From Clostridia bacterium (GTDB lineage Bacteria; Bacillota; Clostridia; HGM11514): DNA of 27,299 bases. Below, one piece after another: positions 18,020 to 22,316 of the stretch; the stretch's first letter is position 1; every line of letters starts with the position of its first letter. The position numbers and the translations under genes are program-made. The notes below the pieces were generated by a model. That model did no database searches. It worked only from the letters and a program-made list of their open reading frames with translations, and was not told where the DNA came from. Location: NCBI GenBank assembly GCA_045586685.1, contig JAZNAU010000047.1, positions 1-27,299 of the forward strand, read 5' to 3'.

Positions 18020-19648
18020 TTATACAAAGTACCATTGGGGGAACCAACAAAGCCAATTTTGAACATACTCTATGGGCACTTCCAAACCGCTAAGGACGGG
18101 ATAAAACATGATAAATAATAGTCCTGCAACACCCGTCACCCCCCAGATGAGAGGTTGTTTTGCTTTAGGGTATTTGTCCCAAGCCGTTATACAAAGATAC
18201 AGAATGGACAAAATCAAAAAGGGTGTACAGTTAAAATAATGATAGATAAACACAATTCTGCTGACCAGCACCCAGGGAAGAAGCTGTGCCAGATAACTTA
18301 AGACTATCAGCCAAACAGTCTTGTCCTTTTTGCGAACACCTAAAACTGCGGAGGCAATCAATGCAAGCAAACCGCCCCACCAAATCAAGGGGTTCCCAAA
18401 CGTGGCAAGGGTGCTGATTCCTCCTGTCATGGTTTGCTGACGGTAAAAAACCATAGGCTTTACCATGACCAGCCATTCATACCAAGGGGAAGAATAGGCG
18501 TGCTCTGCCACAAGCTTACTGTGATAATTGTACATATCAAACTGATTGTTCCACACAGTCTGCCAGCTTTGTCCCTCACATTTCGTCCATGGCACATAAG
18601 ACAGGGCATAAATGAAAACGGGAATCAACACAAAGAAAATGACACAAAAACCACACCGCTTTAGGGCCATTCTTTTAAAATTTTCTTCCTTGAAATTTCT
18701 AAACAAATCAACAAAAAACAACACCGCCAGACCCGCCCCTGCATACAGACAAGTCCATTTAGATGCAACACCCAGCCCAAAAGCAATCCCGCAAAGTCCT
18801 AAAGCACGGAAACGATGGGTTTGAAGATATTCCGTCATGAACAAGGTCATGAGCAGAATGAAGAAGAGGGCATAGGTGTCAATGGTCGCAATTCTGGTCT
18901 GAGCAAAATGCATAAAATCAAGGGCAAATAAGCCACACCCAAGCACCGCCGCCGTTCCGTTTTTTAAAAGACGTTTGCAAAGCAGATAAAACAGAGGCAG
19001 CATGATACAGCCAAACAAGGTTCCTACAAACCGCCAGCCAAAGGGAGTCATACCAAACAAGAAAATTCCCATAGAAATCATCACCTTCCCCAAGGGCGGA
19101 TGCGTGTTTTCATAAGGATTCATTCTGTGAATGAACTCGTAAGCGGTACGGGCATGATAAATTTCATCAAAATAAGAACTGTTTTGATAAGAGGGCTCAT
19201 ATACCGCCAGCTCTTGTTCATCTGTAATCAGCTCCCAGACAGCGTTTTCGGGAATGGGAATCAGGTTGCCGTTTTCATCATATAATGCCAGCTCTCCAAT
19301 TCTTCCAGGCAAATCCAAAACACGAATAAACAAAAATCTTCCCGAAAGATTGGTGTCCACCGAGTGCCAGCTAAAACAATAAGGCTCTTCAAAACGGGTA
19401 ATCTTTTCCTGTTGACCCGTAACCTCCTTTGCCATATAAAATTCGTAATTAGCATGAGAAATACCGGTATAAACCGACATGCGGGACAGCTCATATTCCT
19501 GACCCAAATCAATCCACATCACCGTACCTGAGGGAGTATTCCAAAAGGTCTGGGGAGCATGAGTATCTCCCAAATGAAAAAAAGCGGTAATAGAATAAAT
19601 TAGCGTAATCAATGCCACCAAAATCAATTCTTTTTTGTTCTGTTTCAC
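18020..19648 (-). CDS. PMT/GT39-like lipid-phosphate-sugar-dependent glycosyltransferase with N-terminal extracellular (discoidin-like) domain
   Basis: YFDEIYH and HPPLGK motifs; multi-TM; C-terminal HAYSSPWYEW, GNPLIWWGG, RIVFIYHY; GTG start overlaps the upstream TGA. Confidence 0.85.
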   Translation of the reverse strand: MKQNKKELILVALITLIYSITAFFHLGDTHAPQTFWNTPSGTVMWIDLGQEYELSRMSVYTGISHANYEFYMAKEVTGQQEKITRFEEPYCFSWHSVDTNLSGRFLFIRVLDLPGRIGELALYDENGNLIPIPENAVWELITDEQELAVYEPSYQNSSYFDEIYHARTAYEFIHRMNPYENTHPPLGKVMISMGIFLFGMTPFGWRFVGTLFGCIMLPLFYLLCKRLLKNGTAAVLGCGLFALDFMHFAQTRIATIDTYALFFILLMTLFMTEYLQTHRFRALGLCGIAFGLGVASKWTCLYAGAGLAVLFFVDLFRNFKEENFKRMALKRCGFCVIFFVLIPVFIYALSYVPWTKCEGQSWQTVWNNQFDMYNYHSKLVAEHAYSSPWYEWLVMVKPMVFYRQQTMTGGISTLATFGNPLIWWGGLLALIASAVLGVRKKDKTVWLIVLSYLAQLLPWVLVSRIVFIYHYFNCTPFLILSILYLCITAWDKYPKAKQPLIWGVTGVAGLLFIMFYPVLSGLEVPIEYVQNWLCWFPQWYFV

Positions 19649-20823
19649 GTCGTTTTCTCCTTCTTATAGAATATAAAATAGAAATAACCTCCTGCTAACA
19701 ATGTCAATACAGAAAGAATTGTCACAGTTATAGAGGGAACAGGGGCAAACTGATTCCACGATGAAATCAGTACCGCTACCACATTAAAAAAATTCACTAA
19801 GGATGCCAACAGGTATCCAACCAAAAGACGGGGTTGTTTCAAAGAAGAATCTGCAAAGGATGCTAACATCAGCAAAATAGCGGGATACCAATACCGTTCA
19901 TGCATCATAGGTCCGAATAAAAAGAGGGTCGTCATCATGACAGAGGCAGACAACCACGGTCCTTTTTTCCACAAAAAAAAGGAAAGAAACCCTAAAACAA
20001 GTCCGACCCCTATCATAACGTTTCCCCAAAATCCATAAGTAAAAAAGAGAAAGGGTTCTTCTAATGGCTTCCAGTTCCCCCCAAAAACACCATACAAATT
20101 AAACGCATTTACCGTAGCATAAGGATACCCTTCCGTCATGGTGCCAAAGTATTTGTCCAGAATCAACGTAAAATCTCCCTTACAAAAGGGAAAAGAGGCA
20201 ACAATAAAAATTATTATGCCCCAGCCCAGAATCTTTGTATATCCTAAAACGGGATGCTTTTTATCAAAATAAAACGCTGCCATGACAGGAAAAAAAAGAA
20301 GCGCCTGTGGTTTCATCAATACGGAAATTGCCAGCATAACCGTACTTTTGATTGGATGATTCCTCCAAGCAATGGCAAGAATTAAAAAGAGGCACCACAC
20401 CGAATCAATCTGTGCCCACACGGCAGAATTTATAATCATAAGGGGATTGAAAAGACACACTGCCGCCGTCAGAAAGGCGGCACGTTCTCCTCTCTTTCCG
20501 TAAGCAATTCGGGCAAAAACTCCGGCAATAACCAAATCTGACACAATAGCAGGAAGACGTAAAATAAGTGCCGAAAGAGGAGCGACCCTTTCTGTAAACT
20601 TCAACAACCACCCAAGGGGATACAGAACATATAAATATCCTGGAGGATAATCACAAAAAGAGACCGAACTGTAAAAACGAAGGGGGCCTATCTCGCATAA
20701 CGTTTTCGCCCAGTACAAAAAACAATTCTGATCCGTAGGATGCCCCCACTCTCCAAACAATCCCAATACCAAGCGCAGAAGAAACCCTGCTCCAAACAAA
20801 AGCAGAAACTTTTTTCTGTTCAA
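19645..20823 (-). CDS. GT-C fold membrane glycosyltransferase (ALG6/8-like or DUF2029/GT87-like)
   Basis: CDYPPGY, FNPLMIINSAVWAQIDS, KPQA, MHERY; probable TTG start at 20823 after AGGAG (the 20898 start overlaps the upstream gene). Confidence 0.75.
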   Translation of the reverse strand: MNRKKFLLLFGAGFLLRLVLGLFGEWGHPTDQNCFLYWAKTLCEIGPLRFYSSVSFCDYPPGYLYVLYPLGWLLKFTERVAPLSALILRLPAIVSDLVIAGVFARIAYGKRGERAAFLTAAVCLFNPLMIINSAVWAQIDSVWCLFLILAIAWRNHPIKSTVMLAISVLMKPQALLFFPVMAAFYFDKKHPVLGYTKILGWGIIIFIVASFPFCKGDFTLILDKYFGTMTEGYPYATVNAFNLYGVFGGNWKPLEEPFLFFTYGFWGNVMIGVGLVLGFLSFFLWKKGPWLSASVMMTTLFLFGPMMHERYWYPAILLMLASFADSSLKQPRLLVGYLLASLVNFFNVVAVLISSWNQFAPVPSITVTILSVLTLLAGGYFYFIFYKKEKTT

Positions 20824-20830
20824 ACCATAA

Positions 20831-21346
20831 TCACTCCTTCTCCTTGACACAGGATACATAACTATAATCCCCGTCAGACAAAAAGCGAATCCGACCAAAG
20901 CCGGACTCTGTCAGCAAATGCTTCACCAGACTGACATACATATTTGACTGAGGCTCACTCAAAAAAACAAGGGTTCCCCCCGATTTTACCAACCGACTTG
21001 CCTGCTCCATCATGGGTTTTAAGTCCTCGGTGAGTAAAGAATCGGGATGAAAAACAGCCACGTCATACACTCTGTCTTGAATTTGATTGAGAGTTCCTTC
21101 AAAGGAAATCATGTGCTTTCCACGGGGTACGAGCTTATTTTGTTCCGCAGATTCCTGTTCCGTTACTGCCAACAGGCGGGCGGGTTTGCATTGCAAAAGC
21201 GCCTCCAGCATAGGAACGCTCAGGCGGTAGCAGATAATTTTTGCATTCTCACGTTCTACACAAAGCTCTGCTAACCTTCTTGTTTTTTTCGCTTTTGAAA
21301 TTTTCGATGGGTAAAATTCAGTTAACGCTTTTTGAAAATAATTCAT
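20831..21346 (-). CDS. hypothetical protein with class I SAM-methyltransferase-like C-terminal half
   Basis: YDVAVF...EQASRLVKSGGTLVF...LLTESGF; no clear GxGxG motif I; AAGGA RBS. Confidence 0.55.
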   Translation of the reverse strand: MNYFQKALTEFYPSKISKAKKTRRLAELCVERENAKIICYRLSVPMLEALLQCKPARLLAVTEQESAEQNKLVPRGKHMISFEGTLNQIQDRVYDVAVFHPDSLLTEDLKPMMEQASRLVKSGGTLVFLSEPQSNMYVSLVKHLLTESGFGRIRFLSDGDYSYVSCVKEKE

Positions 21347-21464
21347 CTGCTCAAATCCTTTCTTGTTATTTGAAAAAGGACAAACTTTACATTTTAATGG
21401 TTTTTTTATGATATCATTTCATTTTGGAGATATGCTCAGATATAACTCCGCTTTTCTCCATTTA

Positions 21465-21603
21465 ATGAATTGGCTATCGTCATGAATTGAATTGCCTTTA
21501 ATGCACTTTAGTGCAATTCATGAGCCACAAGGCTCAATTCATGAAATCGCAGATTTCAATTCATGCCAAAGGCAATTCATTGATTTCATCTTTGATGAAA
21601 TCA
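21465..21603. repeat. array of variable mini-hairpins joined by CAATTCATG, with inverted copies on the left
   Basis: CAATTCATG at 21514, 21535, 21557; CAATTCAT at 21573; inverted copies at 21465, 21481, 21488. Confidence 0.9.
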
Positions 21604-21631
21604 TTATATCATACCCCCCTATCCTTTTCAA

Positions 21632-21660
21632 GCATATTTTCAAAAAAGAAGGAAAAAATA
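21632..21660 (+). promoter_or_regulatory. candidate sigmaF/sigmaG forespore promoter of the DUF421 operon
   Basis: GCATA-14 nt-GGAAAAAATA (equivalently 17 nt-AAAAATA). Confidence 0.45.
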
Positions 21661-21680
21661 GCAAATGGGAGGGAAGTAAA

Positions 21681-22316
21681 TTGTTTACATCTTTTTTTCG
21701 AACGGTTATTTTATATTTTGTACTGGTATTGTTTCTAAGGCTGATGGGGAAACGGCAGATTGGCGAATTGCAGTTGACGGAGCTGGTGGTAACACTGCTG
21801 ATTGCCGACCTTGCCTCCATTCCCATGCAGGCAACGGATATTCCGTTTCTCACGGGATTTATTCCCATGTTGACCTTACTCGTTCTGGAAATTGCCATGT
21901 CTTATCTTACCTTAAAATGCCCTCGCTTTCATCAGCTGGTGTCAGGCTCCTCCATGGTGTTAATTGACCATGGTAAAATTGACAGAAAAACGCTATCAAA
22001 ACTTCGGTTTACTCTGGAGGATTTGATTGAAGGGCTTCGTCTGAATCAAATTGAGCGGATAGAGGATGTGGAGTTTGCCGTTTTGGAAACAAACGGTCAG
22101 TTAAGTGTCTTTAAAAAGTCAGAAACCTCTTCCCTTCCATGGCCCGTTATTTTGGACGGTCATCTGGATAAACGTGCTCTGAAACAAATTGGAATAACGG
22201 AAGAATGGGTCATGAATTATCTGAAAAAAAGGGGAGTTTCGTCTGTCAATCAGGTGTTTTTACTGAATGCCGACGACCGCAAAAACTGTTATCTGGTCAA
22301 AAAGGAGGATGTATGA
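21681..22316 (+). CDS. DUF421/YetF-family spore membrane protein
   Basis: LRLMGKRQIGELQ, AVLETNGQLSV; TTG 21681 after GGGAGG RBS. Confidence 0.9.
   Translation: MFTSFFRTVILYFVLVLFLRLMGKRQIGELQLTELVVTLLIADLASIPMQATDIPFLTGFIPMLTLLVLEIAMSYLTLKCPRFHQLVSGSSMVLIDHGKIDRKTLSKLRFTLEDLIEGLRLNQIERIEDVEFAVLETNGQLSVFKKSETSSLPWPVILDGHLDKRALKQIGITEEWVMNYLKKRGVSSVNQVFLLNADDRKNCYLVKKEDV

Follow-up and report, generated by a model that had tools for sequence, protein, structure and literature searches.

We analyzed a 27,299-nt stretch of a Clostridia bacterium genome (assembly GCA_045586685.1, contig JAZNAU010000047.1, positions 1 to 27,299 of the forward strand), hereafter called the window, and within it an array of short hairpins at 21465-21623 in which palindromes of different sequence alternate with a constant linker. 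The array is placed in a 334-bp spacer with 32% G+C, flanked by divergently oriented genes: a set of co-oriented minus-strand genes on its left and, on the plus strand to its right, a DUF421/YetF-type gene (probable TTG start at 21681) followed by a DUF4363 gene. An earlier note, made from the letters of the window, had reported five consecutive perfect hairpins joined by copies of a 9-mer, together with a left arm bearing the same repeat inverted. Upon re-reading the sequence from 21000 to 22100, we recovered all five hairpins and the linker copies at the coordinates it gave, and the left arm as well, which moreover turned out to be itself a degenerate plus-strand array with its own hairpin. 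We tentatively favor the interpretation that the window holds one copy of a dispersed, structured intergenic repeat of gut Clostridia that resembles the repetitive extragenic palindromes (REPs) and REPINs. The repeat unit is about 160 bp long and consists of the linker (ATGAATTG, on the minus strand of the window) alternating with short perfect hairpins; the hairpin sequences vary between units and between subfamilies, and four units are closed by a helix. Its parts in the window are as follows, with the strand given where one applies.

21465-21623: whole repeat unit, delimited by the extent of blastn matches between window 21151-21900 and the loci fetched from other genomes
21581-21603: H0, a perfect palindrome of 10 bp with a 3-nt loop, directly 5' of linker 1 and overlapping the -10 box and the predicted transcript start described below
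21487-21581, minus strand: four-hairpin module, A + (ATGAATTG + hairpin) x 4 + closing strand, a full-length match to covariance model R1
21573-21581, minus strand: linker 1, AATGAATTG, from the linker motif scan
21564-21574: hairpin h1, 4 bp with a 3-nt loop, whose minus-strand 5' arm can alternatively pair in closing helix P1
21557-21565, minus strand: linker 2, CATGAATTG, from the linker motif scan
21542-21558: hairpin h2, 7 bp with a 3-nt loop; the related copies L120, L003, L021, and L082 have the same stem and another loop
21535-21543, minus strand: linker 3, CATGAATTG, from the linker motif scan
21521-21536: hairpin h3, 6 bp with a 4-nt loop, from the hairpin check with shuffles and copy comparison
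21514-21522, minus strand: linker 4, CATGAATTG, from the linker motif scan
21502-21515: hairpin h4, 5 bp with a 4-nt loop; in L021 both sides of the stem are altered and the pairing is kept
21488-21499: closing helix P1, its 3' strand on the minus strand, pairing with 21568-21579 (linker 1 together with the 5' arm and the loop of h1)
21464-21494, plus strand: degenerate opposite-strand array, with linkers at 21464-21472, 21481-21489, and 21488-21494 and a hairpin at 21471-21482

The hairpins are joined by ATTCA, or by ATTCAT ahead of the last one, and the linkers are spaced 16-22 bp apart, three of them at 21 and 22 bp. The 9-mer CAATTCATG has three exact plus-strand copies, at 21514, 21535, and 21557, and one on the minus strand, at 21481; copies with a single mismatch are at 21573 (plus) and 21464 (minus). 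The 12-bp inverted repeat 21488-21499/21568-21579 is perfect (12 nt, 100%). The left arm (21464-21494), whose hairpin at 21471-21482 contains one G·T pair, and the four-hairpin module make up a convergent (tail-to-tail) pair in which the left member has decayed; L021, L082, and L120 carry a longer opposite-strand array where the window has the degenerate one.

Counted over the whole window, linker matches with at most one mismatch are as frequent as expected from shuffles (13 against 13.25); a 118-base stretch holds 6 of these 13 and all 4 of the exact ones, and 7 of the 10 occurrences of the linker 7-mer and its complement lie in the array. When the variable interior of each hairpin was shuffled, 0 of 20000 shuffles recovered all five anchored hairpins, and the fractions of shuffles reaching the observed stem length were, for the hairpins in order, 0.019, 0.0016, 0.0035, 0.019, and 0.00005. 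Compared with dinucleotide shuffles, the fold z-scores were -5.9 for the plus strand as RNA, -4.7 for the minus strand as RNA, and -6.6 for the plus strand as DNA, with 0 of 200 equally stable shuffles in each of the three tests. An origin by chance or by replication slippage in an AT-rich spacer, with no selection, would agree with the base composition of the intergenic region (32% G+C, against 44% in the window) and with the chance-level linker count over the window, but it fails to account for the hairpin shuffles or for the related arrays at 69 or more other loci described below, and we reject slippage because it duplicates spacers, whereas here every spacer differs. Taken with the spacers of the wider family and with a covariance model built without the window, the shuffles refute this explanation, which is effectively excluded.

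We scanned 185,579 species genomes for three ATGAAWTG linkers lying 6-20 nt apart; the scan demanded three exact linkers, and all family counts given here refer to the matches listed. The scan returned at least 123 loci, with about 8 chance matches expected (our own arithmetic, assuming uniform base composition). The fetched loci carry flanks of 0.3-2 kb, in which open reading frames (ORFs) were called mechanically, and promoters in the copies were read by eye. Together, the listed loci and the window contain at least 146 clusters of three or more linkers. Hairpin arrays with different self-complementary spacers account for 79 of these 146 clusters, spread over at least 69 loci and the window; they are built of ATGAATTG or ATGAAATG separated by differing hairpins, with 3 to 6 hairpins per array. 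End-anchored hairpins of at least 4 bp were present in 197 of the 211 listed spacers; 200 shuffles gave 19 on average and 33 at most. (Two loci, L007 and L092, scored as hairpin arrays and are plain tandem repeats by eye; they are kept in the 79-cluster and 211-spacer counts and left out of the strand-energy and gene-orientation analyses.) Plain tandem repeats from unrelated phyla make up most of the other 67 clusters, along with some partial hairpin arrays under our thresholds. The remaining hairpin-array loci all belong to Clostridia save one Synergistes metagenome-assembled genome (MAG; L057), and the arrays come nearly all from gut or rumen Clostridia, with hosts listed as Oscillospiraceae, Acutalibacteraceae, Christensenellales, Ruminococcus, 'Eubacteriales', and 'Clostridia bacterium' MAGs. 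The search for further copies that the earlier note had proposed as a check thus succeeded, and its view of the element as one selected for structure is upheld by spacers that are palindromic at other loci far beyond shuffled expectation. An array at L059:1821-2150, beside a PF05635 gene, follows this plan too, convergent halves included, but is built on another linker (TGTATATCATCA and its complement), so the architecture is broader than UGAA-type linkers.

Thirteen modules, that of the window included, follow one plan of 93-109 nt: an A, four linker + hairpin units, and a strand ending CAATTCAA. The closing helix pairs the first linker and the 5' arm of the first hairpin with this distal strand. 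These 13 aligned modules were selected for showing the complement, so the unbiased test is the complementarity count over the 36 listed arrays that have an antisense linker within 120 nt. Complementarity extended at least 3 bp past the first linker in 16 of the 36 arrays, as compared with 2 of 98 other linkers, and with a mean of 2.3 and a maximum of 6 arrays when the junctions were permuted among arrays. The variable part of the helix takes at least nine different sequences, and all 13 modules have P1 in their minimum-energy fold. In the 13-module alignment, 99.2% of the cells assigned to pairs are paired (80.9% after shuffling, and 30-37% with the partners slid), and the covariation score of 0.441, against 0.112, was matched by 0 of 500 shuffles. 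Both partners change in three columns of the closing helix and in six of the hairpins; one pair alone shows a change on a single side (U-A to U·G, in two sequences), and the covarying columns of P1 have none. The copy in the window forms 12 of 12 bp, with a distal complement ending CAATTCA. Thus the 12-bp inverted repeat, which had been suggested as the closure of a multibranch structure, does close such a module and covaries across the family. Covariance model R1, built from 12 modules of other genomes with the window excluded, matched window 21487-21581 (minus) with 79.7 bits (E 1.4e-17) over model positions 1-98 of 98. Its one other match in the window is to the degenerate array, at 21464-21521 (plus; 24.5 bits, E 0.0008), and in 100 other listed loci it gave 87 matches at E ≤ 0.001.

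DNA homology to the window is limited to the unit, running from 21465 or 21481 to 21608 or 21623 (query 315/331-458/473), and the flanks are unmatched. The nearest listed copies are L120 (90.8% over 130 nt) and L003 (87.3% over 134), followed by L082 (83.4% over 145 nt) and L021 (82.1% over 156); L120 and L082 have about 300 nt of flank only, L003 lies at a contig end, and L021 and L082 are two contigs of a single MAG. None of the six window flank proteins is encoded in any listed locus, which rules out a locus-specific leader conserved with its genes. Pairs of array loci mostly share just 50-260 nt, several loci have two or three copies, and several contigs or MAGs give more than one locus. 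From the shared segment of ~130-220 bp and the unrelated neighboring genes, we conclude that the repeat is dispersed. Different genomes have copies with matching stems between unrelated genes, as expected of the non-autonomous unit that the earlier note had considered. With window 21460-21625 as the query, blastn matched none of 50,697 phage and 72,556 plasmid records, and on this basis a phage or plasmid origin is rejected.

Among the 68 arrays with at least 200 nt on both sides, two or more antisense linkers lie within 260 nt downstream in 33 and upstream in 3; half of the arrays with enough flank are followed by a second, convergent array. The arrays are intergenic by our mechanical ORF calls. 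For arrays with neighbors less than 400 nt away on both sides, the flanking gene pair is convergent in 12 cases, divergent in 4 (the window's included), and co-directional in 19; between co-directional genes 13 arrays are sense and 6 antisense (8 versus 5 for solo arrays). Twelve arrays start less than about 20 nt past the stop codon of a co-oriented upstream ORF (8 of these 12 ORFs have Pfam domains), and in several of them the stop is the TGA of the first linker. A Pfam scan of the 84 nearest flank ORFs returned varied housekeeping functions with no shared theme, and a comparison over 71 arrays showed no family-wide excess of promoters (25 -10-like boxes versus 18 in the control) or of terminators (12 versus 9). 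At L050:1990-2020 (minus strand of that locus), a long palindrome ahead of the array lies within the last codons of a TrmA/RumA-type tRNA methyltransferase gene, whose Pfam match runs to 5 residues from the end and whose ORF stop is the TGA in the first hairpin.

At gathering cut-offs, Rfam models matched only the signal recognition particle (SRP) RNA in the window and nothing at the array. The best match by E-value is Gut-1 (RF01706) at 21510-21582 (minus), with 21.9 bits against a cut-off of 50 (E 0.062 in a 451-nt search and 0.028 in a 201-nt search). Its alignment spans model positions 1-77 of 77 and matches all three model hairpins; the low score reflects the junctions, which read GUGAAAU in the Gut-1 consensus and AUGAAUUG in the window. 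The window does contain three or more tandem variable hairpins with a constant UGAA-containing linker. The 50-bit cut-off was reached neither by the window nor by any of 20 related loci; ATGAAATG-type sister arrays scored 46.7 and 33.5 bits (L108) and 29.7 bits (L111). We interpret these sub-threshold scores, rising to 46.7, as placing the window element, the listed arrays, and Gut-1 in a graded series of linker variants. In the accessible part of Weinberg et al. 2010, Gut-1 is treated only as a noncoding RNA from environmental sequence, listed as 'RNA: Y, cis-regulatory: n, riboswitch: n, human gut only', and its seed alignment runs linker, variable hairpin, linker, with linkers GUGAUAU and AUGAAAU and several copies per contig (PMC2864571). 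The claim of an undescribed system was thus too strong, the same architecture having been published in 2010 as Gut-1 RNA, to which the window is a full-length sub-threshold match; as regards membership of a published Rfam family, the alignment over the whole model speaks for it and the score of 21.9 bits against 50 speaks against.

Because the architecture is known as Gut-1, we take the ATGAATTG family to be a variant of it and not a separate kind. Both have tandem short hairpins of variable, covarying sequence on a constant purine-rich linker with a UGAA core, loops that are mostly C-UNC-G, several copies per contig, an origin in gut-derived sequence, and the status of an orphan motif. They differ in the linker, which is (G/A)UGAAAU or GUGAUAU in Gut-1 and AUGAAUUG here, in the closing pairs (A-U and U·G versus U-A and G-C), and in the single-stranded gap (3 nt versus 5 nt). 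The published model, as it stands in the accessible part of the source, is without the closing helix, convergent pairing, four-unit modules, stop-codon placement, and genome assignments found here. A literature search turned up no report of the ATGAATTG family or of its closing helix and convergent pairs, and no account of the genomic hosts of ATGAATTG arrays, their stop-codon placement, or their strand asymmetry; on Gut-1 it found only PMC2864571 and a structure-prediction benchmark, PMC13674262, each available in part.

The promoter and genes beside the array in the window are the following.

21603-21631, minus strand: sigma-70-type promoter reading into the array, with -35 box TTGAAA (21631-21626), a 17-nt spacer, and TG-extended -10 box TATAAT (21608-21603)
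18020-21346, minus strand: downstream co-oriented genes, given as context only, namely the next three
20831-21346, minus strand: 171-aa ORF, with a weak Methyltransf_8 match under the cut-off
19645-20898, minus strand: 417-aa ORF, matching no family
18020-19648, minus strand: PMT_2 glycosyltransferase, from the family scan

This promoter has 11 of 12 consensus matches plus the TG, it is the only strong one called by the consensus scan, and its predicted start at about 21596 lies within H0; no terminator-like sites were found in 21200-21800. From the predicted start and the absence of a terminator, the array would form the first ~110 nt of the leader of a minus-strand operon, and the predicted leader folds with z = -4.2. 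By eye, TGnTATAAT with a TTG-type -35 box 16-17 nt upstream is also present in L003, L021, L082, and L043, while L120 retains the TATAAT box alone. The earlier note had read the element on the plus strand; as far as transcription is concerned this reading is weakened, the only good promoter transcribing the minus strand.

Another explanation is a locus-specific operator region of double-stranded DNA. The 9-mers would then be direct-repeat sites, for example for a LytTR-type regulator (9-bp repeats ~21 bp apart) that controls divergent promoters of the 171-aa operon and the DUF421 gene. The array does lie between divergent genes and overlap a promoter, three of its linkers are spaced 21 and 22 bp, and the linker bears what we take to be a resemblance to LytTR-type direct repeats. 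We consider an operator very improbable and effectively excluded, as it leaves the perfect palindromes between the sites unexplained, and as no LytTR or other regulator gene is found among the annotated ORFs of the window. The decisive points are that linker spacing varies (16-22 bp in the window and ~14 to 25 bp in the family, with no helical phasing, instead of a fixed ~21 bp) and that the same unit recurs between unrelated genes, with many copies away from promoters, often between convergent genes or just past stop codons where there is no promoter.

The second-ranked explanation, below the REP-like repeat and above a protein-coding cassette discussed further on, is that the ATGAATTG strand (minus in the window) yields a Gut-1-type functional structured RNA; we regard it as possible and somewhat doubtful. 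The closed module would display single-stranded AUGAAU linkers as multivalent protein sites or as endoribonuclease cleavage sites, with the hairpins protecting the cleavage products, and the element would modulate how stable, or how efficiently translated, its host mRNA is (in the window, the 171-aa/417-aa/PMT_2 leader). Speaking for this are the full-length sub-threshold RF01706 matches (of the window, L108, and L111), the published rating of Gut-1 as RNA 'Y' with a seed of the same plan in the accessible part of that source (PMC2864571), the near-consensus promoters reading into the array in the window and in L003, L021, L082, and L043, and, in the window, the lack of a terminator ahead of the next gene and the stable predicted leader. 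Conserved junctions with covarying stems are, in addition, the usual signature of structured RNA, and many arrays lie between co-oriented genes or just 5' of a ribosome-binding site, with sense outnumbering antisense 13:6.

The composition of the hairpins fits an RNA less well. We found that 184 of 192 hairpins in the listed arrays are perfectly Watson-Crick and that the internal mismatches, read on the ATGAATTG strand, comprise 0 G·U against 5 A·C or C·A (which are G·U or G·T on the other strand). An RNA family with no internal G·U in 192 hairpins that tolerates five A·C is unusual. Loops on the ATGAATTG strand comprise 68 U-N-C triloops and 34 U-N-N-C tetraloops (102 together), mostly closed by C-G, and only 2 G-N-A loops; these U...C loops have no stabilizing motif that we know of, and it follows that the other strand carries G-N-A and G-N-N-A loops. 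The other strand also folds slightly better in 44 hairpins (RNA parameters) or 43 (DNA parameters), compared with 12 for the ATGAATTG strand. In DNA mini-hairpins, cGNAg and cGNNAg are the classic hyperstable loops, and G-U-C-A and other non-GNRA members presumably fit this DNA rule better than the RNA rule. In addition, the predicted transcript start falls inside H0, which therefore cannot fold in the minus-strand RNA; even so, H0 remains perfectly palindromic in copies that differ in its sequence (it is identical in L120, and L003, L021, and L082 have a different, equally perfect palindrome in the same place). The family-wide counts of promoters and terminators, the antisense orientation of 6 of the 19 arrays between co-directional genes, the variation from 3 to 6 hairpins, and the lack of an RNA-binding or RNase gene linked to the arrays (among the 84 flank ORFs and the recurrent flank ORFs) also tell against a functional RNA. 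Because of the loop make-up, the purely Watson-Crick stems, and the lack of a clear orientation bias, we suggest that the selected strand is the CAATTCAT strand (plus in the window), most likely as single-stranded DNA. The stems of the Gut-1 seed, in the part of the alignment available, have by eye more A·C/C·A mismatches than G·U pairs, with GNRA or GNA loops on the strand that is not modeled; the orientation of Gut-1 in Rfam may deserve re-examination.

The dispersed-repeat interpretation draws on a comparison with REPs, bacterial interspersed mosaic elements (BIMEs), and REPINs. As far as the accessible text describes them, REPs have a guide tetranucleotide at the hairpin foot, form intergenic clusters, and affect mRNA (PMC6006769). 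The arrays described here are likewise short extragenic palindromes in many dispersed copies, single or clustered, with a conserved short sequence at the hairpin foot and a preference for inverted doublets, and they too lie after genes and within operons, where they may have secondary effects on mRNA (the REP side of this likeness being from the same part of PMC6006769). Both single copies and inverted doublets occur in numbers outside genes; a conserved palindrome with a GT[AG]G-type foot was not found. The hairpins here are also far smaller (11-23 nt) and stand in same-orientation tandem, and no Y1 transposase gene lies near any copy as judged from the 84 nearest ORFs. A cognate Y1 transposase of the REP-associated (RAYT) type would, as a single-copy gene, rarely fall in 2-kb flanks, which qualifies its absence from these 84 ORFs. 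The earlier proposal that a partner is encoded elsewhere agrees with these data, there being no partner gene beside most copies in either the 84 nearest ORFs or the clustering of flank reading frames.

Two other kinds of known system share single features with the arrays. Sponge RNAs of the CsrB/RsmZ type carry their short motif mostly in hairpin loops and are single-copy small RNA (sRNA) genes with terminators. The arrays resemble them in presenting repeated short single-stranded motifs on a series of hairpins, which fits a multivalent platform, but their motif lies between the hairpins, the copies are dispersed, and terminators are not in excess. CRISPR arrays have constant, often palindromic repeats of more than 20 nt and non-palindromic spacers, the repeats of type III antitoxin RNAs are identical and lie beside a toxin gene, and in both an endonuclease cuts at a fixed place in each unit. 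The regular alternation of constant and variable parts is common to all three; here, in contrast, the constant part is 8-9 nt and the variable part is 6-17 nt and self-complementary, and no cas or toxin genes are nearby in the window annotation or the flank ORFs. A CRISPR array is thus rejected on the 8-9 nt constant part, the palindromic spacers, and the lack of cas genes in the window.

Several observations weigh against a REP-like DNA element. The energy gap between the strands is tiny (0.07-0.17 kcal/mol), and the mismatch sample is small (5 versus 0). A conserved TG-extended -10 box and TTG-type -35 box precede five copies of the window's subfamily (L120 with TATAAT only) whose flanks are otherwise unrelated, which argues for selection for transcription of the ATGAATTG strand; at least 12 arrays end less than about 80 nt from a co-oriented start codon, several of them just 5' of the ribosome-binding site; and Weinberg et al., in the accessible part of the paper, rate Gut-1 as certain to be RNA ('Y') on the strand matching ATGAATTG (PMC2864571). 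REPs conserve the palindrome and a GT[AG]G foot, whereas here the linker is constant and the palindromes vary. We saw no target-site or terminal duplication at the unit ends by eye in five copies, and with no such duplication or insertion scar mobility is inferred from distribution alone. No Y1/HUH or other candidate enzyme was found in the 84 flanking ORFs or the recurrent flank ORFs. Finally, a scan that needed three exact linkers yields counts from a biased sample.

If the arrays are nonetheless REP-like, selection would act on folded single strands, and each hairpin, acting as a spacer or handle, would present the constant linker at its foot. The linker may be the recognition or guide sequence of a strand-specific factor encoded elsewhere, and by analogy single-stranded DNA could be acted on as happens with REP sequences and Y1 transposases; the convergent pair is the likely unit of spread. 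The copy in the window sits in a divergent promoter region, where the near-consensus sigma-70 promoter overlaps its right edge, and it would secondarily provide the minus-strand operon with a structured leader and perhaps with its -10 box. This leader would fold into the closed four-hairpin module, much as REPs secondarily affect the mRNAs that carry them.

The one protein family that recurs beside the arrays is PF05635 (23S_rRNA_IVP), with 3 of the 84 nearest ORFs. A tblastn search located a PF05635 gene in 4 of the 123 listed loci (L046, L050, L052, and L059), and in an all-vs-all clustering of 1899 flank reading frames from 69 loci it formed the only real recurrent cluster, the others being the repeats themselves translated. 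Two convergent arrays, with ~30 nt of inverted sequence in common at their inner ends, enclose the gene in L046; arrays flank it on both sides in L052, and in L050 it comes after a complete module. The arrays could thus be cis-elements of cassettes encoding stand-alone Avd-like four-helix-bundle proteins that bind them, in the manner of REPtrons (a transposase gene between its own REPs), with gene-less copies such as that of the window being orphan or non-autonomous. The L046, L050, and L052 layouts favor this, as do the L059 array with its different linker and the fact that the earlier note had independently pointed to an association of such arrays with four-helix-bundle genes. That link was seen here: the gene adjoins arrays in four loci (a raw count, not an enrichment), and none is found in the window. 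We judge the cassette to be quite unlikely, since the gene is present at only 4 of ~48 distinct listed loci with 2-kb flanks and absent from the 27-kb window, the layout of arrays around it is inconstant, and it belongs to a multi-copy gene family for which a locus count alone cannot stand as enrichment. We know of no nuclease or recombinase activity in the 23S_rRNA_IVP family.

A bolder proposal, which we hold to be unlikely though less so than the cassette, is that Gut-1-type arrays constitute a new class of self-propagating repeat structured as single-stranded DNA, and are not sRNA genes. Their convergent doubles would replicate in the manner of REPINs, the linker would be cut or recognized by a strand-specific enzyme, and the Avd-like 23S_rRNA_IVP protein would be the cognate partner. 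If so, the ever-different Watson-Crick mini-hairpins, with G-N-A/G-N-N-A loops on the CAATTCAT strand, would only expose the linker, and 23S_rRNA_IVP, a large orphan family, would gain its first role outside diversity-generating retroelements.

According to the accessible part of its description, Gut-1 has been an orphan motif since 2010, found in human-gut metagenome fragments only (PMC2864571). Through the window and at least 69 loci, its architecture can now be assigned to assembled genomes of Oscillospiraceae, Acutalibacteraceae, Christensenellales, and relatives, and the family gains a closing helix, convergent pairs, stop-codon placement, and a candidate partner protein family, features that make its function testable in cultivable gut anaerobes. 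The signals of strand and chemistry suggest that an Rfam 'sRNA' is possibly a REP-like DNA element. Should the repeats affect mRNA stability or bring promoters with them, as the copy in the window appears to do, they would be a widespread unannotated source of variation in expression among abundant gut bacteria.

As for the surroundings of the array, the 171-aa and 417-aa ORFs overlap by 68 nt and have no Pfam or NCBIfam match at cut-off; with the PMT_2 gene they look like a single operon with a putative role in envelope glycosylation. The first seven bases of the 171-aa ORF, ATGAATT, are also those of the linker. In the predicted leader fold, AAAGGA just 5' of its start pairs with an upstream UCCUUU (21340-21400, minus), a hairpin outside the repeat that could hide the ribosome-binding site. 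A TG-extended -10-like box (TGATATCAT) at 21404-21418 (plus) points right, in the direction of the array and of the DUF421 gene. This box nearly repeats the minus-strand -10 region in inverted form, and the consensus scan did not call it because it is without a -35 box. Together with the minus-strand promoter, this box would produce face-to-face transcription over the array. The minus-strand genes to the left also include hpf, and the remainder of the window consists of usual Bacillota core genes (uppS, cdsA, dxr, rseP, ispG, polC, polA, coaE, dnaX, ybaB, and gap) and the SRP RNA, a bacterial large form (RF01854; 25376-25638, minus, 175.4 bits) flanked by dnaX/ybaB and gap.

Other structured motifs occur near some of the listed arrays. 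A two-hairpin motif recurs next to arrays in L008, L087, L088, L021, and L032, in which a C-rich hexamer pairs with a G-rich one and is followed by a GGCACGC/GCGTGAC hairpin and then by a second G-rich hexamer, which could pair alternatively; it had no Rfam match in L021 or L088, the two loci tested. Less than 2 kb from arrays, we also observed an FMN riboswitch at L036:3720-3836 (100.8 bits) and two tandem c-di-GMP-I riboswitches at L043:1286-1490 (61.6 and 60.5 bits), which are probably unrelated neighbors.

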